Shown here: positions 1 through 18,194 of the stretch, piece after piece
How the letters are laid out: the number at the start of each line of letters is the position of its first letter
How positions within the stretch are numbered: the stretch's first letter is position 1
Virus record (IMG/VR): IMGVR_UViG_3300010283_000001
DNA: 21,394 nt
Strand: one strand, 5' to 3'
Source of the DNA: an uncultured virus (IMG/VR IMGVR_UViG_3300010283_000001)
Lineage: Duplodnaviria; Heunggongvirae; Uroviricota; Caudoviricetes
Notes under the pieces: model-generated
Told to the model about the DNA's origin: nothing
The model's input: only the letters and a program-made list of their open reading frames with translations
Database searches by the model: none
Made by a program: the position numbers and the translations under genes

Positions 1-22
1 CATAGTAAGAGAGATTATCAAG

Positions 23-238
23 ATGGCTAATATCCGCACACTGTTAAAAAATGCAAGTCAAGTTTTATTTTCAGATGACGAGTATTTCAACAAAGACATT
101 ACAGGCGTGAAAAATTTAAAAGACGTGAAGGATGTTATCGGTATCCGTGGATCTTTACGTAAAGGTGACATATACGGTAACAAGGTGCAATATAAACTGT
201 CAAAAGATTATGATTTTACTTTGACAATTATCAACTAA
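23..238 (+). CDS. hypothetical protein, 71 aa
   Basis: ORF track; purine-rich AAGAGAG leader; co-oriented with neighbours. Confidence 0.75.
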   Translation: MANIRTLLKNASQVLFSDDEYFNKDITGVKNLKDVKDVIGIRGSLRKGDIYGNKVQYKLSKDYDFTLTIIN

Positions 239-249
239 GGGATCACAAA

Positions 250-408
250 ATGAAAACTTGCCAATGTGGTAAAAAGTCTATCTCTGGTTTAAAACGTGGC
301 GTTGCTCTTTGTCAATATCACTATAACGCTCAAACGTGGGGTAAGCAGTGGGCGGATCAGGTGGAAGAGGCAAAGAAAGAAAATATAAAAGTAGTTGCAA
401 AGAAATAA
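250..408 (+). CDS. small putative zinc-binding protein, 52 aa (MKTCQCGKK...LCQYH...)
   Basis: Manually translated, below track cut-off; TAAGGG SD upstream; CxC...CxxH motif. Confidence 0.75.
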   Translation: MKTCQCGKKSISGLKRGVALCQYHYNAQTWGKQWADQVEEAKKENIKVVAKK

Positions 409-455
409 AAATAGAGTAAACTGTATTCATCAAGGCGGTGGAATAGCCCACCGCC
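395..455 (+). promoter_or_regulatory. sigma70 promoter plus 5' hairpin (variant)
   Basis: TTGCAA(395-400)-16-TAAACT(417-422); hairpin GGCGGTGG-AATAGC-CCACCGCC 434-455. Confidence 0.7.
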
Positions 456-479
456 TAACAAAGAGAAGAGGAAAACATC

Positions 480-650
480 ATGATCACTTTCGCTACCCGT
501 GAAGCCGCTCGCAACGTTGCACGTAAAGTTAACGCCGCCAACCTGGGCGCTACACTTAAAGCCCCGGTAAAAGATGAATCAGGTAAATGGATCTTTCCTG
601 GTCTGCGTCACGCTGATAAGCTGGGAACATTAACTTTAAAAAATAAATAA
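480..650 (+). CDS. small basic protein, 56 aa (MITFATREAARNVARK...)
   Basis: Manually translated; GAGG SD; codons typical of high expression (CGT, GCT, AAC, CTG); lies between two promoter cassettes. Confidence 0.85.
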   Translation: MITFATREAARNVARKVNAANLGATLKAPVKDESGKWIFPGLRHADKLGTLTLKNK

Positions 651-657
651 TATCCGC

Positions 658-716
658 TTGACAGTAGCATGATTTATAAGTAAAGTAACAACAACGGCGG
701 GAAATGGTTTCCCGCC
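658..716 (+). promoter_or_regulatory. sigma70 promoter plus 5' hairpin (type copy)
   Basis: TTGACA(658-663)-17-TAAAGT(681-686); GGCGGGAAA-TGG-TTTCCCGCC 696-716. Confidence 0.9.
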
Positions 717-736
717 AACAATAAAGAGATAAGATT

Positions 737-1096
737 ATGAAATCAGTAAAAGCAATCAAAACTTACATTGTATCGGCTATTTCTTTTGAAGGTACTACAA
801 CCGAAAAAGAAAAAATCACCGAACTGATGCGCCGTTTTAATTCTGAATACTGGTATCCCGATAATCAAAAACGTTACAATTATAACGTGATCAAGGCGAT
901 AGCCTCATGGTTACAAGGTTTACCGTCAGACATTAACATCGCCTTTGATTATAACGAGATTGATCATTTATTAATTGAATGGAAGTACATAAAAGAAACA
1001 AGCAAAGAAACAACCGTTACCCGTGAGCGGGAAAATTATTGGTTATATATTGCAAGCATGATCGTAATCCTGGCAAAACAGCATAACGTGGCGTAA
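737..1096 (+). CDS. phage hypothetical protein, 119 aa
   Basis: ORF track; directly follows a promoter-hairpin cassette; AAAGAGA leader. Confidence 0.9.
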   Translation: MKSVKAIKTYIVSAISFEGTTTEKEKITELMRRFNSEYWYPDNQKRYNYNVIKAIASWLQGLPSDINIAFDYNEIDHLLIEWKYIKETSKETTVTRERENYWLYIASMIVILAKQHNVA

Positions 1097-1111
1097 TTAA
1101 GAGGAAGAAAC

Positions 1112-1249
1112 ATGAACGCATCACAGCAGATCGAAAAATTCAACCGCAGCAAGGCGCGTAAAGATTGGAACGAAGAGATCACCAAAAAAGGCGACAAGCG
1201 GAACAAAACAAAGAGAGATCGCAGCACAAAAAGATACTGGAACGAATAA
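1112..1249 (+). CDS. T7 gp1.1-like basic peptide, 45 aa
   Basis: Manual translation MNASQQIEKFNRSKARKDWNEEITKKGDKRNKTKRDRSTKRYWNE; GAGG SD; C-terminal half resembles recalled T7 gp1.1 (KGRKLNKTKRDRSHKRSW). Confidence 0.8.
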   Translation: MNASQQIEKFNRSKARKDWNEEITKKGDKRNKTKRDRSTKRYWNE

Positions 1250-1252
1250 CAA

Positions 1253-1277
1253 AAAAGGGCGCAATAAGCGCCCTTTT
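1253..1277 (+). terminator. Rho-independent terminator
   Basis: AAAAGGGCGC-AATAA-GCGCCCTTTT. Confidence 0.85.
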
Positions 1278-1367
1278 AGCTTATATAGAGGCTTGTTACC
1301 CATAGGCAATGGTAACGCCAGGATAAGCCTATAAACCACGTTAGACAGCTTTACAGGAGCTTTAAAA

Positions 1368-1550
1368 ATGAAATTAGACGAAATAAGCAAGGCACTAGCC
1401 CAGGGGCAAAGGTTATGCGCCCGATATCGTGATCAATATGGCTTCATAACTAGCGGCGTGATCCTGGGGATTGAAGGCAATAAGATTTTTATTGACACGT
1501 TGAAAAACGTTGTATATAGTGACAATATAATCTCAATAAAACATATATGA
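1368..1550 (+). CDS. hypothetical protein, 60 aa
   Basis: ORF track; AGGAG SD. Confidence 0.7.
   Translation: MKLDEISKALAQGQRLCARYRDQYGFITSGVILGIEGNKIFIDTLKNVVYSDNIISIKHI
1492..1520 (+). promoter_or_regulatory. sigma70 promoter internal to 1368..1550
   Basis: TTGACA-17-TATAGT. Confidence 0.8.
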
Positions 1551-1558
1551 GGCAAGAA

Positions 1559-1960
1559 ATGAAAAAATTATTGATCGCTGGTTTAATCTCTTTTGGCATG
1601 GTTGGAACATCTAGCGCGGCGATATCCTCCACAGTAGCAGAATTAAGCGCCGTTGATGCAATGGAAAACGTCATGCTTATTAATAATGCGATCCCCGATG
1701 AAATCATGGAGGATTCACACATGATCGCTTATGGTGCTGTTACACAACTAACGGCAAAAATAGATAAATCTATTGTTAATGGCTTAAATGAAGATGTACC
1801 ATGTGAAATTATTACCAGTGTGCTGACTACTCAAAATTTTACGCCGTGGTTAAAAAGTATTCAAAAAGTACACAGTACAGCCGCAGATCGTAGCAATGAA
1901 AAACTAGTGTCAGCACTTGCAACGTATACCCTGGCAAAATGCACCGAGATAAAAGATTGA
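1559..1960 (+). CDS. secreted/periplasmic hypothetical protein, 133 aa
   Basis: Start moved to ATG1559 after GAGG; signal peptide MKKLLIAGLISFGMVGTSSA; two Cys. Confidence 0.8.
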   Translation: MKKLLIAGLISFGMVGTSSAAISSTVAELSAVDAMENVMLINNAIPDEIMEDSHMIAYGAVTQLTAKIDKSIVNGLNEDVPCEIITSVLTTQNFTPWLKSIQKVHSTAADRSNEKLVSALATYTLAKCTEIKD

Positions 1961-1985
1961 CAACATAGAAAGCACGTTATAAGAT
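1957..1985 (+). promoter_or_regulatory. sigma70 promoter
   Basis: TTGACA-17-TAAGAT; no downstream hairpin. Confidence 0.8.
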
Positions 1986-2007
1986 ACACACAACAAAGGA
2001 GAACTAC

Positions 2008-2310
2008 ATGAACGGCATAGCTAAAACGTTTTTTCTTTTTTCTGGTGTAAATGATCCATCAATAAAAGTCGATAGTGTAAAAGAAAACAATACTATCACC
2101 GCTAAATTGTTTCAAGATGAAACAAATAACGTGCTAATCATTAATCTTAAAGAAATAACTAAAGGTTATTATACTATTGCTTACCATGCGATTTATCATG
2201 CTGGTACTAGTGAGGAAGTGCAAACAAGCAACAACGAAAGCGCGGCGCTACCTGGTGATCTGGTGCTGGGCGTTATCAGTTTAATTGTCAATGATTTTTT
2301 TAAGGAGTAA
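2008..2310 (+). CDS. hypothetical protein, 100 aa
   Basis: ORF track; AAGGAG SD. Confidence 0.85.
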   Translation: MNGIAKTFFLFSGVNDPSIKVDSVKENNTITAKLFQDETNNVLIINLKEITKGYYTIAYHAIYHAGTSEEVQTSNNESAALPGDLVLGVISLIVNDFFKE

Positions 2311-2314
2311 AACC

Positions 2315-2410
2315 ATGCCCTATTTACATTTATTTTTCGGTATCTTATTGACAGGATCTTTTTTCTTCTGTATGCTTGTTTCTATTGTAAACCACGTTTT
2401 AAGACATTAA
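2315..2410 (+). CDS. small membrane peptide, 31 aa
   Basis: Manual: MPYLHLFFGILLTGSFFFCMLVSIVNHVLRH; TAAGGAG SD. Confidence 0.7.
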   Translation: MPYLHLFFGILLTGSFFFCMLVSIVNHVLRH

Positions 2411-2419
2411 GGAAACAGC

Positions 2420-2539
2420 ATGAAAATTATTCCCGTACAATATAGCGTAATAAATCCAGCATATGAGGAAGGAAGGAAAACAAGCATGGCTTTATGTTGT
2501 ATTGCTACTATAGCCATGTTGTTATACATTGTGTTTTAA
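2420..2539 (+). CDS. small peptide with hydrophobic C-terminus, 39 aa
   Basis: Manual: MKIIPVQYSVINPAYEEGRKTSMALCCIATIAMLLYIVF; TAAGGA SD. Confidence 0.6.
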   Translation: MKIIPVQYSVINPAYEEGRKTSMALCCIATIAMLLYIVF

Positions 2540-2568
2540 TAGGTTTTATAGTTGTACGCTTTAAAGGC

Positions 2569-2620
2569 TTGACAATTTTTTGTTATGCTTTAAACTATAT
2601 CTTGAAAACGGCAAAGGCCG
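2569..2620 (+). promoter_or_regulatory. sigma70 promoter plus minimal hairpin
   Basis: TTGACA(2569-2574)-16-TAAACT(2591-2596); CGGC-AAAG-GCCG 2609-2620. Confidence 0.75.
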
Positions 2621-2639
2621 CAAACAAAAGGGTAAAATT

Positions 2640-2963
2640 ATGAAATCTGTGATCGGTGTTTATTTGGATAACTCTGATTTTTTCTATCATCGCGCGCGTT
2701 TACTTGATGCTATTGAAATGATAGAATCAGGCTTTAAAGAGTATCGCCTTGCACATGATGACCTGGAAGCATTACAGGGCAATAGTGTTTTTACATTGCA
2801 AGCGAAAGCACTATGCAAAAGCCGGATCGAGATTGCAAGTAAAAAGATAGAACGCGGCATGTCCTGGTTGCGCACCGCAGAAATCAACATGGGGCAATGG
2901 TACGGCGAAAACTTAGAAAATAAACATACTTTTGTCAATGTAGAAAATATTGAAGATTATTGA
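2640..2963 (+). CDS. hypothetical protein, 107 aa
   Basis: Start moved to ATG2640, downstream of the promoter and AAGGG SD. Confidence 0.85.
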   Translation: MKSVIGVYLDNSDFFYHRARLLDAIEMIESGFKEYRLAHDDLEALQGNSVFTLQAKALCKSRIEIASKKIERGMSWLRTAEINMGQWYGENLENKHTFVNVENIEDY

Positions 2964-3025
2964 TTGACAGCACACCTAACAGATAGTATATTGTATCTCA
3001 TAGAGCGGGGAAATGGTTTCCCCGC
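2964..3025 (+). promoter_or_regulatory. sigma70 promoter plus 5' hairpin
   Basis: TTGACA-17-TATATT(2987-2992); GCGGGGAAA-TGG-TTTCCCCGC 3005-3025. Confidence 0.9.
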
Positions 3026-3045
3026 CTTAACAGAAGAGATAAGCT

Positions 3046-3330
3046 ATGAAGATCACAAAAGCACTTTCCAACTATGCAGCACGTCGCGGATTATGTTTAA
3101 CCGTTGAAAATTTAGGGAAAGAAGATTTTTTGTGCTTTTGGGAGCTTGAGAATGATAATGAGTGGATCTTCTCTTATTCTATCTGCGAAGATCAAAACGG
3201 TTGTTTATTAACCTGGCGCGGTAATATCTATTTACCGGAAGAAATCAAAGAAGAATTACCAGGCACGATCATGACTGAGAAACAGCTTAAGGAAGTGATC
3301 AATTTTGTAGGGCAAAACATTAAAAAATAA
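3046..3330 (+). CDS. hypothetical protein, 94 aa
   Basis: ORF track; follows cassette leader. Confidence 0.9.
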   Translation: MKITKALSNYAARRGLCLTVENLGKEDFLCFWELENDNEWIFSYSICEDQNGCLLTWRGNIYLPEEIKEELPGTIMTEKQLKEVINFVGQNIKK

Positions 3331-3331
3331 T

Positions 3332-3392
3332 TTGACACCAGGCAAACAACGTAGTAAAGTTTATCACATAAGGCGGGAAATGGTTTCCCGCT
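3332..3392 (+). promoter_or_regulatory. sigma70 promoter plus 5' hairpin
   Basis: TTGACA-17-TAAAGT(3355-3360); GGCGGGAAA-TGG-TTTCCCGCT 3372-3392. Confidence 0.9.
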
Positions 3393-3413
3393 CACAACAA
3401 AAGAGAACAAATC

Positions 3414-3584
3414 ATGATCCCGACTATGTTTTACGTATCGCGCAAAGGTCACAATATTTTTTGGTCTGAAGATTTAAATGAAGCCATGACGTTTGCCCGT
3501 GATCGTGTTGCTATCGGTGGAGTTAACATTACCGTAACCGATGAAAACGGCATTGAATACTATAACGGCGACGATGAAGAGTAA
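3414..3584 (+). CDS. small acidic protein, 56 aa (MIPTMFYVSRKG...NGDDEE)
   Basis: Manual translation; follows cassette leader AAAGAGA. Confidence 0.85.
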   Translation: MIPTMFYVSRKGHNIFWSEDLNEAMTFARDRVAIGGVNITVTDENGIEYYNGDDEE

Positions 3585-3650
3585 TTAATAAGGCGGGGAA
3601 TACTTCCCGCCACGCAGTGAATTTTCCGTTTGGGAAGTAAAAAATAAATC

Positions 3651-3708
3651 TTGACGATAATTTGTTATCTGATAGAATGTATTCCGTAGGGCGGCAATAG
3701 TGCCGCTC
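3651..3708 (+). promoter_or_regulatory. sigma70 promoter plus 5' hairpin (variant)
   Basis: TTGACG-16-TAGAAT(3673-3678); GCGGCA-ATAG-TGCCGC 3691-3706. Confidence 0.85.
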
Positions 3709-3729
3709 ACAACTAAAAGAGAAATCATC

Positions 3730-3924
3730 ATGGCGCTTAAAAAACTAACAAGCAATACACGTTGGGATGAAATTGACGGGGAAGTATACATTTTCGCCCG
3801 TAAACCAGGTGATCAAAAATGGTCAAAGGCTTTTACTTGCCACCCTGCAACAATAGATCTAATAAAAAGTAAAGGTTTACGTGAAGCAGTAGCGAGAAGT
3901 TTACTGATCCCTTATAAAAAATAG
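3730..3924 (+). CDS. small basic protein, 64 aa
   Basis: Start moved to ATG3730 after AAAGAGA leader. Confidence 0.85.
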   Translation: MALKKLTSNTRWDEIDGEVYIFARKPGDQKWSKAFTCHPATIDLIKSKGLREAVARSLLIPYKK

Positions 3925-3925
3925 T

Positions 3926-3987
3926 TTGACAATATGCTGTTATCTGGTAAAGTGTACTACATAGGGCGGGGCAATAAGGCAACGCCC
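3926..3987 (+). promoter_or_regulatory. sigma70 promoter plus degenerate hairpin
   Basis: TTGACA-16-TAAAGT(3948-3953) with TGn extension; GGGCG...CGCCC 3964-3987. Confidence 0.8.
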
Positions 3988-4005
3988 ATTAATGAGGGTA
4001 GAATC

Positions 4006-4110
4006 ATGTTAGAGAAAATTTTCACGGTTGTAGTAGTTGGCCTGGCGTTATCGGTTGGATTGGTTGCAACTATGGCTAACATGATCCTATCTTCCCACGG
4101 TATTGGATAA
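4006..4110 (+). CDS. small membrane peptide, 34 aa
   Basis: Manual: MLEKIFTVVVVGLALSVGLVATMANMILSSHGIG; GAGG SD. Confidence 0.75.
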   Translation: MLEKIFTVVVVGLALSVGLVATMANMILSSHGIG

Positions 4111-4120
4111 GGTGAATCAA

Positions 4121-4336
4121 ATGATCACGAATAAGACAGGTAAAACAGAATTTTTACGCGGCTTGCAAATTGGTAAACCTGAAATATGGCATTGCACTAA
4201 ATCCGCGCATAATGAAATGAAAGATTTTACTGCTACTTTACAACGTGTTAAAATATCTATCACGCAGAAAAAAGCCTTGTTAGTAGTAGAAAACGAGATA
4301 CCGCAAACCATTATTATTGTCGAGCGTACAGCATGA
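4121..4336 (+). CDS. hypothetical protein, 71 aa
   Basis: Start moved to ATG4121 after TAAGGTG; ATGA overlap with next gene. Confidence 0.8.
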   Translation: MITNKTGKTEFLRGLQIGKPEIWHCTKSAHNEMKDFTATLQRVKISITQKKALLVVENEIPQTIIIVERTA

Positions 4337-4719
4337 AAACTGAAATCATTATTGAAATCATCAACGGTTATAAAGAAGCCTTTATTTTTGCTGAATCAGC
4401 CAGGGATCATGAAGGCTATTTTATTGATAACTTAGACGATTATGATTTTTCAGATCAAGCCCATCAGCGGATCATTCATGACGTAGCGGCTTATTGTGAT
4501 GCCAATGATGCTGCTATCTCTGAGGCAATGAGCGACGGCGCTACAGCAAACCAGATCGGGAATGACTTACATTTCACCCGTAACGGTCACGGCGTAGGCT
4601 TTTGGGATCGCCCTGAAATATACACTACTAACACCGCCAACCGCCTAACAAATGCAGCTAAATTAATGCCATCGGTGCATGCTTACATTGGTGAAGATAA
4701 TTTGATTTATATTGAATAA
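4333..4719 (+). CDS. acidic phage hypothetical protein, 128 aa (FTRNGHGVGFWDR motif)
   Basis: ORF track; translationally coupled; motif recalled from uncharacterised phage proteins. Confidence 0.9.
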   Translation: MKTEIIIEIINGYKEAFIFAESARDHEGYFIDNLDDYDFSDQAHQRIIHDVAAYCDANDAAISEAMSDGATANQIGNDLHFTRNGHGVGFWDRPEIYTTNTANRLTNAAKLMPSVHAYIGEDNLIYIE

Positions 4720-4725
4720 AAAGTA

Positions 4726-4784
4726 TTGACACCGATCCCCAGTATGTTATTATTTACCACGTAGGCGGGAAATGGTTTCCCGCC
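4726..4784 (+). promoter_or_regulatory. sigma70 promoter plus 5' hairpin (type copy)
   Basis: TTGACA-16-TATTAT(4748-4753) with TGn; GGCGGGAAATGGTTTCCCGCC 4764-4784. Confidence 0.9.
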
Positions 4785-4807
4785 AGGTAATCAAAAAGGT
4801 AAATACT

Positions 4808-5197
4808 ATGCGCAACCTGGTTTCTGTTTCTAACGTTGAAAAATTTCAATCCTTACAGGGTATCGTTAACAACGTAGCGCCTTTTTTAGTCAATGGCTTG
4901 ATTGCAAAGATGAAAAATAAACATCATGCGGCATGGTCTGCTTACTGCTTTGATAATGATGAAAAAGCGGCTGAAATGATGTTAGATATGCTGTTAGATA
5001 GTGTAGAAACATCTTTACCGGAAAACATCGCAGAAGAGATCACCTATCGTTATAATATGGCGATCACTTACCAGGAGGTTGCGCAATTTAATATGATGGA
5101 TGATGACGAACAACAGGATCAGGAAATGTTCTGGGAGTATGCAGATCGTCAATCGGCTTTTGATGAAAAGTTAGCGATGTATTATAACGAATATTAA
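4808..5197 (+). CDS. acidic hypothetical protein, 129 aa
   Basis: Start moved to ATG4808 after AAGGT; the track start lies inside the hairpin. Confidence 0.9.
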   Translation: MRNLVSVSNVEKFQSLQGIVNNVAPFLVNGLIAKMKNKHHAAWSAYCFDNDEKAAEMMLDMLLDSVETSLPENIAEEITYRYNMAITYQEVAQFNMMDDDEQQDQEMFWEYADRQSAFDEKLAMYYNEY

Positions 5198-5214
5198 TAC
5201 ACGGTAAAAGAAAG

Positions 5215-5237
5215 GGGCGCACTAAGCGCCCTTTTTT
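5215..5237 (+). terminator. Rho-independent terminator
   Basis: GGGCGC-ACTAA-GCGCCC-TTTTTT. Confidence 0.9.
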
Positions 5238-5423
5238 GTATTCTTTTTTCACGATGGAAGTAACACGTAAAGAATAAACGTAAAAGGTGGCGTAAAACAG
5301 CCTAAAACCGATTATAACCGCTTAAACAAGGTAATAATGACTAATCACCTTGCCAGGATGAAAAAGCTGTTATAAAGCTATTTAGAGCGTTTAAAGCACA
5401 TAGGAAATAATTTGCTTTTTATC

Positions 5424-5452
5424 TTGCCTTTTATCCTGCTTTTGATTATTAT
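5424..5452 (+). promoter_or_regulatory. sigma70 promoter with no directly linked ORF
   Basis: TTGCCT-17-TATTAT followed by a GGGCGG start like the other cassettes. Confidence 0.6.
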
Positions 5453-5583
5453 TATGGAACGGGCGGCACCTGGGGACAGGGGAAGGTAATCACCGGAAGA
5501 TCCCGCTATATATTGATAGCTAATATCTATTAAACAACAAAACATCAAAGGAATAAACTATCAAATCTTTACAATTCTACCTA

Positions 5584-5645
5584 TTGACACAGGATCACCC
5601 TTATAATAAGATGTATCCAGTAGGGCGGGAAATGGTTTCCCGCTT
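5584..5645 (+). promoter_or_regulatory. sigma70 promoter plus 5' hairpin
   Basis: TTGACA-17-TAAGAT(5607-5612); GCGGGAAATGGTTTCCCGC 5625-5643. Confidence 0.9.
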
Positions 5646-5662
5646 GATATAGGAATCATACC

Positions 5663-5896
5663 ATGATCGAACAAATTAAAAGCACTACACCAAATGTTAA
5701 CGGCAATGTTTCACACTTTATCGGTGATAATGAAAGGGGTACACCATACGCCGCCGTAACCGTGCAACCTAATGGCGATTATTGGTTTACCGTGTACGGA
5801 TCATACTCTTTCGGACGCCCGGCACATGATAAGATCTTGCAAGCGGTTAAGCCTACTGGGAAGAATATCACAGCAGAAAAATTTTATAAAAAATAG
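5663..5896 (+). CDS. hypothetical protein, 77 aa
   Basis: ORF track; AGGA SD. Confidence 0.85.
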   Translation: MIEQIKSTTPNVNGNVSHFIGDNERGTPYAAVTVQPNGDYWFTVYGSYSFGRPAHDKILQAVKPTGKNITAEKFYKK

Positions 5897-5897
5897 C

Positions 5898-5939
5898 TTG
5901 CTTTATAGCCGCTGTTAATTTATAGTTATCGTGTAGGGC
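5898..5939 (+). promoter_or_regulatory. sigma70 promoter
   Basis: TTGCTT-17-TATAGT(5921-5926); keeps the GTAGGGC start motif but lacks the hairpin. Confidence 0.8.
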
Positions 5940-5971
5940 AAACAATTTTAAACGGTAAACGAGGAATCACC

Positions 5972-6355
5972 ATGAGCAATATCATCAACCTGGCAGCGAC
6001 TGTAAACGGTAAAGACTTTAACGGCGCTGTAGACCGTGATCCTATGTGGTGCTTATCAGTGTTTAAAGGCGATCTGGTTGAAGTTAGAACAACCGAAGGT
6101 TATAGCGACGATTATAAATGCGAGATTCATTTACACAACTGGTACACGGGTAAAACTTATGCGCTGAATCATGCGTTTATCGGCAAGGTTGAATATAGAG
6201 AAATGATCGACGAGGAAACAGGGCAAGATTTTAGCGATTATGTTTATATTCGTTCAGAAACATTAGCCGAACGTTTGATCGAGAAAATGAAAGCAAAAAA
6301 TAAAATTAATTTAGCTCATTGGATTGATATAACAAACGATTCTGCTTATCAGTAA
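5972..6355 (+). CDS. hypothetical protein, 127 aa
   Basis: ORF track; GAGG SD. Confidence 0.9.
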   Translation: MSNIINLAATVNGKDFNGAVDRDPMWCLSVFKGDLVEVRTTEGYSDDYKCEIHLHNWYTGKTYALNHAFIGKVEYREMIDEETGQDFSDYVYIRSETLAERLIEKMKAKNKINLAHWIDITNDSAYQ

Positions 6356-6370
6356 ATAACATTTCATACC

Positions 6371-6397
6371 AGGGCGCACAAAGCGCCCTTTCTTTTT
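6371..6397 (+). terminator. Rho-independent terminator ending the early block
   Basis: AGGGCGC-ACAAA-GCGCCCT-TTCTTTTT. Confidence 0.9.
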
Positions 6398-6599
6398 ACC
6401 TAAGTAAAGATGATAGCTTTTACCTATCAAAAACGTTCACCGAAAAAAGTGAATAGATCGCGGTATCGAGCTAATCAAGGAGCAGATGAACAACCATACC
6501 ATGAAGATCATAAGGCGCTTACAACGTGTTTTAGACCGCTTATTTTTAATTTCTCAATGTAACTATCTGGCAAAAACAGCCTTTTTCTTGTCTTTCCTC

Positions 6600-6676
6600 T
6601 TAAATGATAATCATTCTTATTTATAGCTGATTATTTATGCAATAAACTGAATAATGCAATAATGATAATCATTCTT
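6600..6676. promoter_or_regulatory. two Fur-box matches
   Basis: TTAAATGATAATCATTCTT 6600-6618 (14/19) and AATAATGATAATCATTCTT 6658-6676 (16/19) versus GATAATGATAATCATTATC. Confidence 0.7.
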
Positions 6677-6970
6677 AACTTATGACCATCTAACCTATAA
6701 AATAATAAGTTATCTAACTAAATTAAAACTAATTATCTCACCTTTATTTATAACTTACTGTTACTATCTCATTGATAACCTTATATTAAACAACAATAAC
6801 CAATATAAATCATTACTAAGCTAAATATAATCTATCTAACCTTTAAAACTATAACTATAATCTATCGAATTGTTGCACAAAGTAACTATTAAATTGTTAG
6901 TAACATTACTAAATAATTAATATCCTATCTATTTATGATCTAATCTTTACCTTCCTATCTATTACCTAAA

Positions 6971-7001
6971 TAATCATTTCATACAGTAATCATTTCATAC
7001 A
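6971..7001 (+). repeat. tandem direct repeat TAATCATTTCATACA x2
   Basis: 6971-6985 and 6987-7001 are identical. Confidence 0.9.
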
Positions 7002-7066
7002 ATAATTATAACAAGAAATATAATTCGCAAGCGTATCATTAGCAGCCTATGCCGGACACATAGGCG

Positions 7067-7212
7067 GCTAATAATAACGCAACTACACACCCCACATAAT
7101 AACCATCACCGATAGTTATTATTTGTGCTTATGTAGCTTGCAACAATTGCAAGCGCAACAATATACATGGTATATTGTATCCCTTACATTGTTGCGGTGC
7201 GTTATTATTAGC
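7067..7212. repeat. 15-bp perfect inverted repeat enclosing several hairpins
   Basis: GCTAATAATAACGCA 7067-7081 / TGCGTTATTATTAGC 7198-7212. Confidence 0.9.
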
Positions 7213-7501
7213 TAATGTTTAGAACATTGGCTATAATATAAGCTGCATATAATAAGCATAGCGAAGAATAATACTGATGATCATAATGCGCCACCCTCCA
7301 GGGGGCGCTATGTGCACACAAAGAAATCTTTCTTGTCAAGAAAAATATTACTACTATTGCGCAAAATTATTTATATCTGAATAGATGATTTTTTATGCTA
7401 TTGGCCCTAATTATACCCCCTTTTGTTGAGCCTACTTTCTTAAAAGCGCAATAAATCAGAATTATCTTGATTTTTAGTCGGTTTTATAGTACAGAAAGTA
7501 T

Positions 7502-7520
7502 GCAAATGATAATCATTATC
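7502..7520. promoter_or_regulatory. Fur-box match
   Basis: GCAAATGATAATCATTATC, 17/19 to consensus. Confidence 0.75.
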
Positions 7521-7597
7521 AGCTATCTTCCACGGTTGGCACTATTTCACGCAGGATCATTTCATTTGGCAAGGTGTATATAGATGTTTAGAAATGC

Positions 7598-7610
7598 CAA
7601 GCCATTGATT
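7598..7610 (-). promoter_or_regulatory. IHF consensus site
   Basis: Minus strand AATCAATGGCTTG = WATCAANNNNTTR. Confidence 0.55.
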
Positions 7611-7690
7611 TACTTAGAATTTATCTGTTTTGTTGTGAGTAATGCCTTTCTTGCTCAGAAAATAATCAAAAGTCTTATAAGTCATTGAAT

Positions 7691-7715
7691 GATAATGCAA
7701 ATGATAATTATTCTC
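7691..7715. promoter_or_regulatory. overlapping Fur-box matches
   Basis: GCAAATGATAATTATTCTC 7697-7715 (15/19) plus GATAATGCAAATGATAATT 7691-7709 (14/19), offset 6 bp. Confidence 0.7.
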
Positions 7716-7803
7716 ATTGATATTTGAGGGGGACGGTCGGCAGAAATCGGGGGGCGCTGAAAATCGCGTTAAGCACCTCTCGCAAGCGAGCAGTATTTTG
7801 CGG

Positions 7804-7816
7804 CAAGTTATTGATA
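7804..7816 (-). promoter_or_regulatory. IHF consensus site
   Basis: Minus strand TATCAATAACTTG. Confidence 0.55.
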
Positions 7817-7935
7817 TTATTGACTTTACGCTTATGAAAAGGGGGTGTGTCGAAATAAATCGGGTATACCGGAAAATTTTTGTGGCATAGATATTTATTT
7901 GTCTATATTATGTACAAAGGGGTGTGTTAAAAATA

Positions 7936-7972
7936 ATAGGTATATATAGAATAATTGATAGGGAAATCCTAT
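7936..7972. promoter_or_regulatory. OxyR-like box
   Basis: ATAG-N7-taga-N7-ATAG-N7-CTAT; three of four tetrads exact. Confidence 0.45.
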
Positions 7973-7990
7973 ACTAATCCCTATACTAAT
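7968..7990 (+). repeat. tandem repeat CCTATACTAAT x2
   Basis: 7968-7978 and 7980-7990. Confidence 0.85.
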
Positions 7991-8023
7991 TCCTCCATTA
8001 ATGATGTTCCTATGTTACTGTTC

Positions 8024-8052
8024 TTGTAATAGATGAAAAGACGCTGTATGAT
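8024..8052 (+). promoter_or_regulatory. sigma70 promoter opening the right-hand gene run
   Basis: TTGTAA-17-TATGAT. Confidence 0.7.
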
Positions 8053-8089
8053 GTGTGGCATGAAACGTAAACTTATAAAGGAGTCTGAT

Positions 8090-8467
8090 ATGTGTGTTCC
8101 TCTTAGCAGTCCACTGCTGTTAGAATTTTATAAAGCATGGATGGAAGATCATTCCTCAATGCATCGTGAGAATGTTGGCTTGTGTATTTGCCTTATGGAT
8201 TATCTGGCAACCACTATGTCAAAGAAAAAACCTACGCAAGAAGATATAGAACATTTCAAGATGGTTCGTAGTAAAACGCTAGAAGAGATGAAATTGCAAT
8301 TCACGTGTGCTGGGCTATCATCATTCCTGCCCTTTAATGATGACCTTCTGTGTTATGAAGATGAAGGTAAGAAACATTCTTGCCATACGAACCCAGAGCG
8401 ATTGCAGTGGGTGAAAGATCGTATTGCCGATTCATGTTTGGTGTTAGGGGGTGATAATGAAAAGTAA
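8090..8467 (+). CDS. hypothetical protein, paralogue family A, 125 aa
   Basis: Start moved to ATG8090 (AAGGAG); GLC...QF..AGL...PFN...CH.N..R..WV motif. Confidence 0.9.
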   Translation: MCVPLSSPLLLEFYKAWMEDHSSMHRENVGLCICLMDYLATTMSKKKPTQEDIEHFKMVRSKTLEEMKLQFTCAGLSSFLPFNDDLLCYEDEGKKHSCHTNPERLQWVKDRIADSCLVLGGDNEK

Positions 8468-8825
8468 TATTCCGTTGAGTAGTGCAGCTTTAATACGATT
8501 CTATAAAGCATGGATTGCCAACCATCCGGCAATGAATCGCACAACGAGTGGCTTGTGTGGTTGTCTGGTAGATTATGTAGATGATTTTGTTGGTCAGGTA
8601 ACTAGAGAAGAAGATAAAAGATGGCGTGATCGTTTGTTGGATAGTTTGAAATACGAAATGAGGAAACAATTTACATGTGCAGGACTGGACTACAATCTTC
8701 CGTTCAATGTAGATTGCATGAATTACCTTTCAGAGTGTATAGACTTGGCGTGTCATACCAACACGTTACGTCTTCAATGGGTGAAAGACAGAATCGAAGA
8801 TGTAAATAATGCTTGCATTGAATAG
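8457..8825 (+). CDS. hypothetical protein, paralogue family A, 122 aa
   Basis: GGGGGTG SD; same motifs as the upstream gene. Confidence 0.9.
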   Translation: MKSNIPLSSAALIRFYKAWIANHPAMNRTTSGLCGCLVDYVDDFVGQVTREEDKRWRDRLLDSLKYEMRKQFTCAGLDYNLPFNVDCMNYLSECIDLACHTNTLRLQWVKDRIEDVNNACIE

Positions 8826-8840
8826 AAATGCCTGTACACT
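8813..8840 (+). promoter_or_regulatory. possible sigma70 promoter
   Basis: TTGCAT-16-TACACT. Confidence 0.5.
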
Positions 8841-8896
8841 GTGTTCCATAAAATATGCAATATCGCGCATAACAAAACTACTAATGAGAGGTGTAA

Positions 8897-9355
8897 ATGA
8901 AAACTGTATCTTTGTATCTTGCTAACACGGAGCGTGTACATAATCTTGTAAAAGAATGCGGTGTGAGTGTTCAATTTAACATAGGAAAGCCTTCCGTGGT
9001 GACAGGCAGTGAGATGTGTGTTATTGATTTCCTCAATGAATATTTTCGTGGAAAACCTATTGCTCGTCACTTCATTCAAGAAATGCGAGATGTACTACAG
9101 GCTTATGAATTCTACCCAGAAATTTGTGAACGCTATGAAACTATTCTTAGTTCTGTAGAAGATCCAGATACCAGTGAAATAGGTGTTTCCCACTTACTGT
9201 GGATGTTGAATGAAATTCAGGATGGGTGTAATGGTATGTCTGAAACCAAACGCCATCGTTGGCTAGGCTATATTCAGGGTGTTATGGTTATGAAAAACCT
9301 TATTACCGTTGATGATGAACGTAATGCTACGCGCCCTGTCTTTAATGGAGCATAA
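8897..9355 (+). CDS. phage hypothetical protein, 152 aa (HLLWM...K.HRWLGYIQG domain)
   Basis: ORF track; GAGG SD. Confidence 0.9.
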   Translation: MKTVSLYLANTERVHNLVKECGVSVQFNIGKPSVVTGSEMCVIDFLNEYFRGKPIARHFIQEMRDVLQAYEFYPEICERYETILSSVEDPDTSEIGVSHLLWMLNEIQDGCNGMSETKRHRWLGYIQGVMVMKNLITVDDERNATRPVFNGA

Positions 9356-9356
9356 C

Positions 9357-9572
9357 ATGAAAAGCATTCAGGTGTGTATTGAAAATAATTGTGGTTATCT
9401 GGGATTGACACATGTTGCTTTCCCTCTTATGTTAGATGCCGATATCGCTTACAGCGGAGTTGCTTATGTGTCATTCAAGACAATGAGCCAAGTACCTGGC
9501 TGGAAGTGGGAAGTAGTTGATGTTGTTGAAGGAGAAGACTATGTTTTCCTTCCACACGAATATACTGTTTAA
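9357..9572 (+). CDS. hypothetical protein, 71 aa
   Basis: Start moved to ATG9357 (GGAG); resembles the C-terminal part of 18695..19294. Confidence 0.8.
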   Translation: MKSIQVCIENNCGYLGLTHVAFPLMLDADIAYSGVAYVSFKTMSQVPGWKWEVVDVVEGEDYVFLPHEYTV

Positions 9573-9586
9573 AAGAGGAAAAGAAG

Positions 9587-9763
9587 ATGGATAAACAAAC
9601 TACTGTGTACTTAGTAACAAAGAATACCCCAGGCTGGAGCCAATGCAGCACTGTACCTTACAAAATCTGTGCAACACTAGAACTAGCACAACGTGCAGAA
9701 GCAGAAGTGAATGCCATGCAATACAGCTATGGTGAAATCATTCCTTTTACTCTTGAACAATAA
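9587..9763 (+). CDS. hypothetical protein, 58 aa (MDKQTTVYLVTK...)
   Basis: Manual translation; GAGG SD; fills the gap exactly. Confidence 0.8.
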   Translation: MDKQTTVYLVTKNTPGWSQCSTVPYKICATLELAQRAEAEVNAMQYSYGEIIPFTLEQ

Positions 9764-9774
9764 GGAGTTGTGTA

Positions 9775-10227
9775 ATGTTTGAAATTGGTAAAGTGTATCG
9801 TTTTAAAAACCCATCTTATATCCGTAAGTTTGCTAACGTGTCCGAGTGCAATAGCAGGATTGCTTCTTTTTTAGGTGATTCCTATTTTCGTGTATTAGAT
9901 GTGGATGATTGGTATGGTGTCACTGCTTTGCAATCCTTAGCAGGAGAACAAGAAATTATCGCTCAAAATGAAGGAGACTTTCTTCAGTGTTACACGTTGC
10001 TTGCAAAAAGTGAGTTTGAGTATTTTGTAGAAGTCTTAGAGGAAGCACCAAAAAGTAAACACGAAGAGAAATACCTGCTTGTAGTGGATGGAGTTCCGAT
10101 CATGGAAACCATCTCCCGTGAGGAAGTTGAAAAAGAGGCGAAACGTTACAAGCTGGATCGTACACAGAGTGTAGTTGAAGTCTATTCTCTTGTTGGTGTT
10201 GCAGATATTAGTGTGAACATCGTATAA
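9775..10227 (+). CDS. hypothetical protein, 150 aa
   Basis: ORF track; TAAGGAG SD. Confidence 0.9.
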   Translation: MFEIGKVYRFKNPSYIRKFANVSECNSRIASFLGDSYFRVLDVDDWYGVTALQSLAGEQEIIAQNEGDFLQCYTLLAKSEFEYFVEVLEEAPKSKHEEKYLLVVDGVPIMETISREEVEKEAKRYKLDRTQSVVEVYSLVGVADISVNIV

Positions 10228-10230
10228 TAT

Positions 10231-10443
10231 ATGTGTAATGACAGATACATTCTTCGTGTATCTGATAAGTCTCCTATGTTTGACTGGCGGGGCTGGTGGC
10301 TACTAGCTCCGATGCAAGGTCTGACAGACGTGGAAAAGGAGGCTTATGTGTATACAAAAGAAGAGATAGAAGATAGTCTTTATTTGACAGATAGCATTAA
10401 GAATGGTATCTTTGAGTGTAAATTGAAAGGAGAGGAAGAATGA
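10231..10443 (+). CDS. hypothetical protein, 70 aa
   Basis: ORF track; tight packing. Confidence 0.75.
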   Translation: MCNDRYILRVSDKSPMFDWRGWWLLAPMQGLTDVEKEAYVYTKEEIEDSLYLTDSIKNGIFECKLKGEEE

Positions 10444-10739
10444 CTATTACAGAAAAACTGCGCTGTATTGCAAAGCAAAGTGGAGAAGGTTTATGGTTTC
10501 CTATTGAGGAAATTATTCAGGACTGTTATGATCAGGCTAAGACTGGCAAATACTCCAAAGCATTTAAACCATCTGTTTTCGGTTTGGATGACTACCCAAA
10601 AAATGAACAAGCAAAGAAACGACAAGTTGATTTGATTGATCTTGCTATGGAAGCACTACGAGAGCATGGGCTTAGTAAGGTGTATGCTTTAAACACCAAA
10701 GAGGGCTTTGTAGATTCAGTGATCGTAGACTGGTATTAA
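10440..10739 (+). CDS. hypothetical protein, paralogue family D, 99 aa
   Basis: ORF track; GAGG SD; ATGA overlap. Confidence 0.85.
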   Translation: MTITEKLRCIAKQSGEGLWFPIEEIIQDCYDQAKTGKYSKAFKPSVFGLDDYPKNEQAKKRQVDLIDLAMEALREHGLSKVYALNTKEGFVDSVIVDWY

Positions 10740-10748
10740 GGAGAAGCC

Positions 10749-11117
10749 ATGCAAGAAAATAATAAAGTGTGTAACATGAAAAGCAGCCCCTATTTGCTAC
10801 AATTTTATGAATGGTGGTTAGAACAAGAAGATACAAACTTTAGCAAAAAGCACTATGGTCTTTGCACGTGTCTTGTAGACTTCTTGTACAATATTGCTTG
10901 GATAAAAGATGTTGAGAGTGTATCAAAGCTCCAATCCTCTGTGCGAGAGGAAATGAAGGAACAGTTTAAGAAAGCGGGTTTGAACCATTTACATCCGTTT
11001 AATACGGATTTCTCGCACTACTTTACGGAAACAGAACTAGGCATTGCACACCTTAATAAAGAACGTGTACAATGGGTGATTGATCGTATTCGTGATATGG
11101 AGGAATACAATGGTTAA
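10749..11117 (+). CDS. hypothetical protein, paralogue family A, 122 aa
   Basis: TAAGGAG SD; family motifs. Confidence 0.9.
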   Translation: MQENNKVCNMKSSPYLLQFYEWWLEQEDTNFSKKHYGLCTCLVDFLYNIAWIKDVESVSKLQSSVREEMKEQFKKAGLNHLHPFNTDFSHYFTETELGIAHLNKERVQWVIDRIRDMEEYNG

Positions 11118-11319
11118 GTTTAAAACTTTCTGTGCAATCACTGTTTGTCTTATTCTTGCATACGTGTTATTCTCTAGTATCATTCGTTTAGGTGAGTATA
11201 TGGCAAGAGAAGCTCGTGAAAGTGAAGCTAAAAAAGAACAGTGCATCGTGTTAAAGCACCAAAGGGATGCTGAAAAATTTCTTGAACAGGATTGTGGGCG
11301 CTATGTGAATTATAATTAG
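11110..11319 (+). CDS. membrane-anchored protein, paralogue family B, 69 aa
   Basis: Start moved to ATG11110 (GGAGG); N-terminal hydrophobic helix. Confidence 0.85.
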   Translation: MVKFKTFCAITVCLILAYVLFSSIIRLGEYMAREARESEAKKEQCIVLKHQRDAEKFLEQDCGRYVNYN

Positions 11320-11328
11320 GAGGGAAGT

Positions 11329-11577
11329 ATGTTAGATATTTTTACCTTTGATCGTGTTGGTACACCGATTACCGAAGAAGAACGTACCAAAATTGAACAA
11401 GAATTGGATGCTTTACGTGCGTCTCTTACAGACACAGCCTCACTACAACGTGAAGCTGCACATCTCACAGAGATCACTGGTATTCAGTGGAGCACGGAGT
11501 GGGTTGTAATTACAATTGAAGCGGATATTTGGGGACATGAAGAGACGCTACGTACCGGAGTAGTAACGGTTTGGTGA
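11329..11577 (+). CDS. hypothetical protein, 82 aa
   Basis: ORF track; AGGAGG SD. Confidence 0.85.
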   Translation: MLDIFTFDRVGTPITEEERTKIEQELDALRASLTDTASLQREAAHLTEITGIQWSTEWVVITIEADIWGHEETLRTGVVTVW

Positions 11578-11623
11578 TAGATGTTATTCTTTTGTGTTTC
11601 TTGATATATAAATAGGAGGGTTT

Positions 11624-11848
11624 ATGGTAAAACGTCTGGAATGGGATGCGTGTACTGCTCACGCTTGCCACTGTGATATTGTTGAAGATCCTAATGGAGA
11701 GATGGTGTATTATGAGGATTACGAAGCATTGCACAATGCTGTGATTGCTTTACTGGATGATATTAGCTCACGCTATCCAGGACAACAATTCACGTGTCCA
11801 CATATCCAACTATTAGCCGAACTTACGGAGTATCCAGGTGTTCCATAA
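11624..11848 (+). CDS. hypothetical protein, paralogue family C, 74 aa
   Basis: AGGAGG SD; CDIV.DP.G..V...DY..L motif. Confidence 0.85.
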   Translation: MVKRLEWDACTAHACHCDIVEDPNGEMVYYEDYEALHNAVIALLDDISSRYPGQQFTCPHIQLLAELTEYPGVP

Positions 11849-11849
11849 T

Positions 11850-12017
11850 ATGGGTGTCCCTGAACAACTGCTCTTTATTGTAGGATTAGTAGGCTTATTG
11901 GCGGCTGGCGCTAAAGCCGCTTCTCACACGCATCACATAATGTTAAGATTTCTGTTCCTACTCCCTTCTATCCTTGTATTATTAGTCATATTGATTGATA
12001 ACATTTTTCACAATTAA
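11850..12017 (+). CDS. small two-helix membrane protein, 55 aa
   Basis: Manual: MGVPEQLLFIVGLVGLLAAG...LRFLFLLPSILVLLVILIDNIFHN; fills the gap. Confidence 0.65.
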   Translation: MGVPEQLLFIVGLVGLLAAGAKAASHTHHIMLRFLFLLPSILVLLVILIDNIFHN

Positions 12018-12026
12018 GGAGAGGTT

Positions 12027-13297: not shown

Positions 13298-13307
13298 GGA
13301 GAGTAAT

Positions 13308-16054: not shown

Positions 16055-16079
16055 CACGATCTTAACTTCTTGTTAGTAT
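16051..16079 (+). promoter_or_regulatory. sigma70 promoter
   Basis: TTGACA-17-TAGTAT with TGn. Confidence 0.8.
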
Positions 16080-16107
16080 CAATGTGTACTAACGATAAGG
16101 AGGGTTT

Positions 16108-18193: not shown

Positions 18194-18194
18194 T

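Follow-up and report, generated by a model that had tools for sequence, protein, structure and literature searches.

Why would a phage place a short GC-rich hairpin at nearly the same distance behind one early promoter after another? The question is raised by a 21,394-nucleotide stretch of DNA from an uncultured virus (IMG/VR record IMGVR_UViG_3300010283_000001; the whole stretch is called the window here), in whose first 6 kb small genes are preceded again and again by a cassette of promoter, hairpin and leader. A first-pass annotation had described nine such cassettes between 395 and 5939 and had read them as a modular array for capturing host-takeover genes. The promoter-plus-hairpin array that it observed is confirmed, and its interpretation as a whole is partly supported. 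We favour, with moderate confidence, a reading in which this is an array of early cassettes, the hairpin stabilising the 5′ end of each message and the conserved boxes serving as homologies for gene exchange.

Annotated relatives identify the window as the early small-gene region of a phi92-like myovirus (Justusliebigvirus, Stephanstirmvirinae). By megablast of its first 8 kb, 234 phage records match and 45 cover at least 80%; the closest, Escherichia phage Nernie, is 98.5% identical with 99% covered, and its 146-kb record was used as a stand-in for the whole genome. The genes of the cassette region all lie on the plus strand, and nearly all are annotated ‘hypothetical protein’.

The window was scanned for pairs of -35 and -10 elements, with a cut-off of at least 10 of 12 consensus positions, and the 40 nucleotides (nt) after each -10 were folded. 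Promoter-like sites overall are not above chance (79 in the window vs 69.1 ± 10.5 in shuffles). The signal that stands out is the coupling of near-consensus sites to a hairpin. Seven of the 21 plus-strand sites passing the cut-off (658, 2964, 3332, 3651, 3926, 4726 and 5584, at 10-11/12) have a fold of -13.0 to -16.9 kcal/mol in the next 40 nt, and all seven lie inside the range annotated before. The remaining 14 fold at -6.5 kcal/mol or weaker, including all ten beyond 6 kb, and a value of -13 kcal/mol is reached by 0.8% of 3,000 random 40-nt windows of the Nernie genome. The nine sites first reported thus comprise seven strong ones and two weaker members, 395 having a weak promoter and 2569 a stem of only 4 bp. 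The hairpin core said to recur exactly is a 19-mer at 697, 3373, 4765 and 5625 on the plus strand, with no match in 100 shuffles, and a fifth copy at 3005 does carry an extra G-C pair. Two features are new relative to that description, a hairpin without a promoter (3592-3611) and a promoter without a hairpin (5898-5926). The features are as follows.

395..482, plus strand: cassette 1; -35 TTGCAA 395-400, -10 TAAACT 417-422, spacer 16, hairpin 433-456, A-rich leader, ATG 480; the promoter is weak (8/12 consensus), the hairpin is the strongest of the set (-17.7 to -18.7 kcal/mol), and the gene has 56 amino acids (aa).
658..739, plus strand: cassette 2; -35 658-663, -10 681-686, hairpin 696-716 with the exact 19-mer at 697-715, ATG 737.
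2569..2642, plus strand: cassette 3, a weak member; -35 2569-2574, -10 2591-2596, 4-bp GC hairpin 2609-2620, ATG 2640; the promoter is good (10/12), the 40-nt fold only -6.1 kcal/mol.
2964..3048, plus strand: cassette 4; -35 2964-2969 abutting the preceding stop, -10 2987-2992, hairpin 3002-3027 (core 3005-3025 with one additional G-C pair), ATG 3046.
3332..3416, plus strand: cassette 5; -35 3332-3337, -10 3355-3360, hairpin 3372-3392 with the 19-mer at 3373-3391, ATG 3414.
3592-3611, plus strand: promoterless hairpin directly 3′ of the stop codon of the open reading frame (ORF) 3414-3584.
3651..3732, plus strand: cassette 6; -35 TTGACG 3651-3656, -10 3673-3678, hairpin 3689-3708, ATG 3730.
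3926..4008, plus strand: cassette 7; -35 3926-3931, -10 3948-3953, two-tier hairpin 3964-3987, ATG 4006; the gene has 34 aa and is hydrophobic, judged by eye from its sequence.
4726..4810, plus strand: cassette 8; -35 4726-4731, -10 4748-4753, hairpin 4764-4784 with the 19-mer at 4765-4783, ATG 4808.
5584..5665, plus strand: cassette 9; -35 5584-5589, -10 5607-5612, hairpin 5624-5644 with the 19-mer at 5625-5643, ATG 5663; the gene has 77 aa and belongs to phrog_9227.
5898..5974, plus strand: promoter without a hairpin; -35 TTGCTT 5898-5903, -10 TATAGT 5921-5926, start motif GTAGGGC, shared with the cassettes, ATG 5972; it is the right edge of several exchanged modules.
1253-1277, 5209-5237 and 6371-6389, plus strand: hairpin-plus-T-run terminators of one family with T-rich tails, from a terminator scan.

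A -35 abutting the previous stop codon, described as frequent, occurs at about five of the nine sites (658, 2964, 3332, 3926 and 4726). The repeated promoter-leader-hairpin layout supports the idea that each unit would drive one or a few small genes.

For the comparisons that follow, 45 hairpins were picked by eye as intergenic and lying before an ORF, from the window, Nernie, KMB37, ESCO13, Tr1, rV5_ev168 and CR9; rows inside genes, at terminators or duplicated among near-identical genomes were dropped. In 37 of these 45 cassettes the stem sets in 9-11 nt past the -10, and in all 45 the distance is 4-12 nt. The narrow spacing reported earlier for the window held, the stem beginning 9-11 nt on in all eight cassettes with a strong hairpin (2569 excluded). 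Before the stem lies a conserved start region, a pyrimidine-purine step followed by TAGGGCGG. If transcription begins at the usual distance, about 7 nt past the -10, this spacing predicts 3-4 unpaired nt ahead of the stem, and it is from the spacing that we infer the start site. When the first ~80 nt of nine predicted transcripts were folded, the minimum-energy structure kept the hairpin in eight, and the RNA would presumably fold in this way in vivo. In the ninth, that of cassette 3332, part of the 5′ arm is predicted to pair with the start-codon region instead (window 3367-3425); as the sole such case of nine, it may be a chance effect.

The genes behind the hairpins have weak ribosome sites, as the first-pass annotation had remarked. 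The mean duplex with the anti-Shine-Dalgarno (anti-SD) sequence is -4.0 kcal/mol for cassette genes (n=9) vs -7.2 for 28 genes at 8-21 kb, some of whose start codons were possibly mispicked; the nine other genes of the cassette region average -5.7 kcal/mol. A repeated motif of another kind, an SD plus start codon (GGAGGGTTTATGGTAAA and variants), is found at gene starts at 11615-11631, 17598-17614 and 18002-18018 of the window, and may be a short homology for gene insertions and deletions (indels) in the cassette-free operon.

An identity as intrinsic (Rho-independent) terminators was considered and rejected. Over the 45 hairpins, the 8 nt after the stem hold a mean of 1.2 T (maximum 4) and 4.3 A; there is no T-run, and the region's three real terminators have one. 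The Paula record (LR865361) labels leader hairpins as terminators on the minus strand (480-503, 737-764, 3050-3073 and 3636-3661). A minus-strand terminator has nothing to terminate here because the neighbouring genes are all on the plus strand, and a T-rich tail on the minus strand is found at one copy only, 695-717.

The hairpin is under constraint, both as a fold and as a sequence. Among 14 paralogous cassettes of one genome, mean pairwise identity is 0.95 for the -35, 0.70 for the -10, 0.34 for the spacer and 0.41 for the 15 nt upstream of the -35, which are 80% A+T. Only the functional boxes are alike, so the copies are not recent duplicates. Orthologues were compared for eight window cassettes in six relatives; 31 of the 48 pairs were gap-free, 10 were dropped for indels and 7 were without an ortholog. 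Over the 31 pairs the hairpin has the fewest differences per site of all segments (5/679, 0.7%), followed by the -10 (1.6%), the first 30 nt of coding sequence (1.7%), the leader (2.1%), the -35 (2.2%) and the gap between -10 and stem (5.1%). The upstream 15 nt and the spacer differ at 14.4% and 14.5% of sites, and these high values are due largely to cassettes 395 and 3651, which are recombination edges.

The 45 cassettes from seven phages comprise 37 distinct hairpins with 30 distinct 5′ arms, and the two arms of each hairpin fit one another. Native hairpins have a mean energy of -12.9 kcal/mol vs -8.9 for 1,316 chimeras in which the 5′ arm and loop of one hairpin were joined to the 3′ arm of another; 10.7% of the chimeras reach the native median. 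In a model-fitted alignment of 150 matches (85 distinct), 93.1% of cells pair vs 86.7 ± 0.6% when shuffled, a value reached by none of 500 shuffles; slid controls pair in 43-70% of cells. Six of the ten stem pairs have changed on both sides (23/500 shuffles), and the covariation score is 0.226 vs 0.122 (0/500). The compensatory changes of inner pairs that had been pointed out earlier are therefore borne out, by the arm-swap energies and by covariation of the upper stem. The G-U pairs offered before as an argument for the plus strand carry little weight, since there are 10 G-U against 6 A-C mismatches and the reverse strand folds at -12.6 vs -12.9 kcal/mol.

Pairing varies in the upper stem, and the four basal pairs, GCGG/CCGC, are almost invariant. 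The combination GCGG...CCGC is present in 33 of the 45 hairpins (one of four in rV5, one of three in CR9). The 5′ arm is on average 83% purine, and the pairs are strongly oriented (G-C 182 vs C-G 43; A-T 67 vs T-A 8). Stem length varies, with 16-22 nt between the outer stem boxes. MAFFT followed by RNAalifold on 45 trimmed cassettes gave 0 pairs, a result set aside as an alignment artefact (padded ends and unequal stem arms left unaligned). Over window positions 1-8200, no hairpin matched Rfam 15 at E values up to 1, a sub-threshold match being found only at the terminator 1237-1282, and an 82-nt cassette had no match in 5,426 complete E. coli genomes.

In some hairpins, close relatives carry the loop in opposite orientations, each the reverse complement of the other, and a stem imperfect in one is perfect in the other (G-T to G-C). 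Cases are ~4012-4035 and 1455-1475 of the KMB37 locus (L006) and window 3592-3611 compared with ~3641-3661 of the Paula locus (L001). Judged from the sequences, loop inversion with stem perfecting is a signature of template switching in quasi-palindromes.

Genes come and go at these cassettes. The first-pass annotation had expected gain, loss and replacement among relatives to be bounded by the units, and the edges do fall in cassettes. The gene 250-408, present among the relatives compared only in the window and Nernie, has its right edge within the promoter of cassette 395. A 270-bp gene of Paula, Nernie, KMB37, alia and inny, preceded there by a promoterless hairpin and leader, is absent from the window; the gap left there opens where the promoterless hairpin, with its loop inverted, ends, and closes 12 nt short of the -35 of cassette 3651. 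Phage inny is without the whole 3651 module. Phage alia has another gene in place of window 5589-5922, the exchanged piece beginning in the -35 of cassette 5584 and ending at the -10 of promoter 5898. Homology with ESCO13 (Phapecoctavirus) is mosaic, breaking at 3035, 3597-3605, 3703, 3915, 4776 and 5946, and at 4776 it stops inside the hairpin of cassette 8. Hairpins themselves have been exchanged as well. The gene after cassette 3332 in inny (at 3381) bears the other common hairpin type, and in one IMG/VR contig (L045) cassette 3926 has a different hairpin between unchanged flanks.

The 24 public runs found were assembled contigs, in which RNA ends do not show; four RNA-library runs gave no transcript starts or ends, and only structural variants of the relatives' contigs were used. 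These contigs, from four sequencing runs, add two variants: in one the promoterless hairpin is joined directly to the leader of gene 3730-3924, and in the other a deletion runs from 5619 to 5933 over a shared motif of 7 nt. Contig joints that go back were considered as excised mini-circles and rejected, being, like several loose ends, matches to paralogous cassettes upstream of the window, and contig ends at 3387-3391 were read as assembly breaks, coinciding with the repeated 19-mer.

Of 23 homology breakpoints tallied by hand, 18 map to cassette footprints; the footprints make up 15.7% of the 6.4 kb. Among the non-genic breakpoints, 16 of 18 lie in cassettes vs 54.8% expected (binomial p ~0.002, for events that are not independent). 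Within the genus the cassette-free stretch 8000-13544 is also variable, with 32 records covering at least 80% of it and phi92 and alia covering 67-73% in 3-4 pieces; the stretch 15000-20544 is nearly invariant. The cassette region is matched by 379 records and two control stretches by 144 and 133. Phapecoctavirus covers 48% of the cassette region at ~87% identity vs 9-18% of the controls at 71-84%. This wider sharing of the cassette region is compatible with exchange between genera.

Where the array sits is clear from the ends of the genome. Position 1 of phi92, its annotated left end, aligns with window 7429, and the 343-bp direct terminal repeat of phi92 aligns with 7429-7771, so the physical ends of the genome fall within the window. 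On the right, the coding part of the genome closes with the cassette region (to ~6.4 kb), whose transcription runs toward the right end; the window genes from ~8 kb on are phi92 gp001-gp036 of the left end. In Nernie, the promoter-plus-hairpin scan found twelve minus-strand family sites at 86.2-95.5 kb and one at 118.3 kb, and lower promoter thresholds added two further array members. Matches to a covariance model built from nine equal-geometry copies of the hairpin are confined to 86.1-95.4 kb at E <0.01, with a weak match (E 0.14) at 118.3 kb. The window thus carries the downstream (promoter-distal) nine of ~14 cassettes. The array sits in the final ~12 kb ahead of the non-coding terminal region in a phi92-like genome; its beginning, ~4.3 kb upstream of the window, is a divergent promoter region.

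That non-coding terminal region, of 1.6 kb, holds four AATGATAAT(C/T)ATT copies at window 6603-6619, 6661-6677, 7503-7520 and 7700-7716. The third (AAATGATAATCATTATC) lies inside the stretch aligned to the phi92 terminal repeat and resembles what we take to be a near-perfect Fur box. By this motif, the left-end operon could be under iron-responsive control. Among the records retrieved, 19 named ‘Campylobacter phage’ are ~95% identical to phi92-like or rV5-like phages of E. coli, and single ‘Acinetobacter’ and ‘Listeria’ phage records likewise resemble such phages; their host labels look doubtful.

The unit is not confined to the close relatives of the window. Promoter-hairpin units built alike are present in Citrobacter phage Tr1, in rV5_ev168 and in Cronobacter phage CR9. 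They also occur in the 348-kb jumbo phage 121Q (NC_025447), at positions 85-175, 640-835, 1440-1505, 1735-1826 and 2325-2418 of the locus compared (L015); some of these hairpins are identical to ESCO13 and Nernie copies, and the units have stronger GGAG ribosome sites. A promoterless hairpin in 121Q precedes a homolog of gene 5663-5896 (gene 272 is the one named for a promoterless copy). The T7-like Kayfunavirus CLBP1 (OZ035730) carries three fused pieces at 1501-1827 of its locus (L009), directly upstream of an ocr-like gene and downstream of a host-type promoter. The first runs from the -10 to the ATG of cassette 3926 (3942-4008) at 82% identity, with a basal G-C pair changed to A-U; the second and third are gene 5663-5896 and the next promoter up to its -10 (89% identity). 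A module of cassette and gene has thus apparently moved into a T7-like phage record, the only Kayfunavirus among the 224 records with gene 5663-5896 and possibly a chimeric assembly. A pattern scan of IMG/VR gave 18 stretches on 11 contigs, and six loci were inspected. One of them (L045) is a true relative and one (L037) a possible cassette of unknown context; the other four (L035, L036, L047 and L049) were dismissed as chance pattern matches without a -10.

Taken together, these observations suggest how a cassette might work. It opens with an AT-rich stretch and a near-consensus sigma70 promoter, which host RNA polymerase would read in its unmodified form; there follow the start region (TAGGGCGG), a GC-rich hairpin of 7-10 bp, and an A/C-rich leader of 20-25 nt with only a 3-4 nt SD match. 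Transcription would start ~7 nt after the -10 and leave the hairpin 3-4 nt from the mRNA 5′ end, where, like the leaders of ompA and papA, it would hinder 5′-end-dependent decay through RppH and RNase E. Protection of mRNA by a 5′ stem-loop is a known mechanism, described in the part of the review PMC3997798 that deals with it. The open A-rich leader would recruit ribosomes without a strong SD. With few terminators between cassettes, the hairpins would also lie between cistrons in read-through transcripts, where they may block 3′ exonucleases and so protect 3′ ends. The conserved boxes would act as short homologies across which related and unrelated phages lose, gain and swap modules from promoter to promoter. 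We take the hairpin to be, most likely, a 5′-proximal RNA structure that would prolong mRNA life.

Several findings weigh against this reading. Four window promoters (1492, 1957, 2348 and 5898) are without a hairpin, as are many early promoters of rV5_ev168 and CR9. Promoterless hairpins precede genes in the window (3592-3611), in ESCO13 and at gene 272 of 121Q, so the hairpin also works, or persists, away from a 5′ end. The relevant part of PMC3997798 states that the RppH of Bacillus needs ‘at least two, prefers three or more’ unpaired 5′ nt, and given that need the three unpaired nt predicted here may still admit the enzyme. The covariation alignment was fitted to the structure and includes reverse-strand matches, and so leans toward its result; covariation also cannot separate RNA from single-stranded DNA. 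Arm polarity and the GCGG...CCGC base exceed what stability needs, a hint of sequence-specific recognition or common descent. As for exchange, the breakpoints are hand-tallied and non-independent, and homology blocks naturally end at conserved islands. Compared with alia, the 6.4-kb cassette region has three indels, and the cassette-free 13 kb (8.0-21.2 kb) has three as well, whose edges lie within genes, 0-45 nt from the gene ends. Gene capture, as proposed by the first-pass annotation, thus stands in part: cassettes are favoured seams, but the early region next to them, which is free of cassettes, has indels at about the same frequency, and gene flux therefore does not require cassettes.

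If the base of the stem is read as sequence, the hairpin could be an RNA operator. A protein of phage or host would recognise the GCGG/CCGC pairs and the preceding UAG and control the immediate-early messages jointly, either shutting them off by repression or cleavage or modifying RNA polymerase as lambda N does at boxB. That the hairpin is the most conserved segment, that its basal pairs are near-invariant while the upper stem covaries, and that its arms are so strongly oriented would all fit such a role, as would near-identical hairpins in three phage lineages, 121Q included, and a variable stem length, which suits a protein reading the base of an RNA helix. Conservation at the stem base, arm polarity and recurrence in unrelated phages keep this idea alive. 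On the other side, the invariance of the basal pairs is partly built in, the matches having been selected by their likeness to the model, and GCGG...CCGC is kept in a minority of the rV5 and CR9 hairpins. Horizontal transfer of whole modules can explain the similarity between lineages. Loops are inverted in some relatives with the cassette kept, so the loop is not the recognised part, and among the early proteins, which are without known family, no candidate binding protein was identified. We consider an RNA operator improbable. A fuller version makes the hairpin the shared recognition tag of one protein, of phage or host origin, which would read the stem base and the start motif before it and switch the immediate-early regulon on or off at the RNA level, the tag with its promoter being portable; this version strikes us as quite improbable. 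If it were true, the tag would have travelled alongside small genes into no fewer than three coliphage lineages unrelated to one another (phi92/rV5-like phages, jumbo phages like 121Q and one T7-like record), and it would mark candidate host-takeover or anti-defence genes across phage genomes.

Two further explanations place the action elsewhere than at the 5′ end of the message. The hairpins could act on transcripts arriving from upstream, by attenuation or termination or as protective 3′ ends after leader cleavage, as has been proposed for PeSLs, the promoter-stem-loop cassettes of T4-type phages. With tandem cassettes and few true terminators, every hairpin is also internal to longer transcripts, and the promoterless hairpin at 3592-3611 directly follows a stop codon. 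The composition of G-run, loop and C-run is the same as in the PeSLs of RB49/phi1, and in the portion of the T4-type work that reports the assay a PeSL stem-loop cut reporter expression like a strong terminator (PMC2839356). However, the stems are followed by few T residues and real terminators have a T-run, which makes the terminator version unlikely. A hairpin acting on upstream transcripts would be expected before the promoter, as in PeSLs, yet it lies after it, and the tight spacing of 9-11 nt to the -10 would be purposeless. The 3′-protective role is compatible with 5′ stabilisation and does not exclude it. Overall, we regard action on upstream transcripts as rather unlikely. Alternatively, the palindrome could act as DNA, as a hairpin or cruciform for template switching, a site like the attC of integrons, or a duplex operator at +4 to +25. 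Loop inversion with stem perfecting (KMB37 vs Nernie in two cassettes; window vs Paula at 3592-3611), the swapping of hairpin types at orthologous cassettes (inny 3381 and L045) and breakpoints in or at the hairpin (3598, 3605, 3611, 3705 and 4776) speak for it. Breakpoints are nevertheless spread over all parts of the cassette (upstream, -35, spacer, -10/start motif, hairpin and leader), a pattern that fits recombination at short homologies and not a cut at a single specific site. The array has no recombinase linked to it, half-sites at variable distances speak against a dimeric DNA-binding repressor, and a single operator sequence is hard to square with inner stems that differ within the same genome. 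We give a DNA-level role little chance, its site-specific form being unlikely. An early cassette whose hairpin stabilises the 5′ end remains our preferred account.

The genes themselves say little about what the array is for. Of the 18 proteins compared with Pfam and PHROGs, 17 belong to a PHROG of unknown function or to no PHROG at all. ORF 1112-1249 matches Pfam Phage_1_1, the T7 gene 1.1 family (E 6.5e-12), and ORF 5972-6355 matches Phage_30_8, the T4 gp30.8 family (E 5.1e-29); we know of no role for either family. One cassette-region protein was tried in the ESM Atlas and in a PDB sequence search, and nothing was found in either. The first-pass annotation's ‘host takeover’ is thus a guess from position and timing.

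Early phage genes often include anti-defence and host-shutoff functions, and phages of the phi92, rV5 and 121Q types are widely used in therapy collections. The unit could serve as a sequence rule for locating the first-expressed genes of these phages. The hairpin reading corrects a recurring terminator misannotation in public records, and module shuffling at regulatory cassettes would be extended beyond T4-type phages, with a different layout. The ~85-nt unit of strong promoter, 5′ hairpin and SD-poor leader is also a natural part for tests of mRNA life and translation in E. coli. No description of the promoter-hairpin unit was found in the literature searched, which did not take in the phi92 genome paper, where promoters may be described; the rV5 genome paper reports 33 promoters and 20 terminators and describes no cassette in the sections concerned.

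How does the unit compare with known systems? A Rho-independent terminator is likewise a short GC-rich intergenic stem-loop, but the cassette hairpin has no T-run on the gene strand. The lambda-type nut site, whose boxB hairpin is bound by the N protein, is also a small hairpin found shortly after early promoters; here cassette promoters each have their own hairpin, and much nearer to the start, and no boxA or N-like protein came to light, no search having been aimed at either. The 5′ stabilising stem-loops of ompA and papA are reportedly the work of Emory, Bouvet, Arnold, Bricker and Belasco. In both systems a stable hairpin, here a few nt from a predicted 5′ end, is followed by a single-stranded leader and ribosome site, as far as the portion of PMC3997798 covering these leaders describes them. 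The phi92-type element differs in that the place of its 5′ end is predicted from the -10 spacing, and in that it is present in ~14 copies per genome, is conserved in sequence besides fold, and has promoterless copies too.

The closest resemblance is to the PeSLs of the T4-type phages RB49/phi1, T4/PST and KVP40/nt-1, according to the parts of the original reports that define them (Arbiol et al. 2010, PMC2839356; Comeau et al. 2014, PMC4122927). The first-pass annotation had made this comparison, which holds for behaviour and fails for anatomy. Both are repeated composite units of ~80-100 bp, with an AT-rich stretch before the -35 (80% A+T here), a near-consensus sigma70 early promoter (-35 identity 0.95 here) and a stable stem-loop of G-run, loop and C-run (mean -12.9 kcal/mol and 83% purine in the 5′ arm here), after which come a ribosome site and a start codon, that of a small gene without known function; in both, the units cluster in a variable region. 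Indel and replacement edges between close relatives fall within units in both, and here the neighbouring cassette-free region varies as well. In the PeSLs so described, however, the stem-loop lies between the -35 and -10, overlaps the -10 or stands immediately before the promoter, and it was assayed as a terminator (PMC2839356, PMC4122927). In the phi92-type unit it lies 9-11 nt downstream of the -10, inside its own transcript, without a T-run after the stem and with a weak SD, and its bearers are phages of the phi92, rV5 and 121Q types (the relatives of the window being Stephanstirmvirinae) rather than of the T4 type. Because its stem-loop stands in another position than the one that defines a PeSL, we do not count the unit as one.

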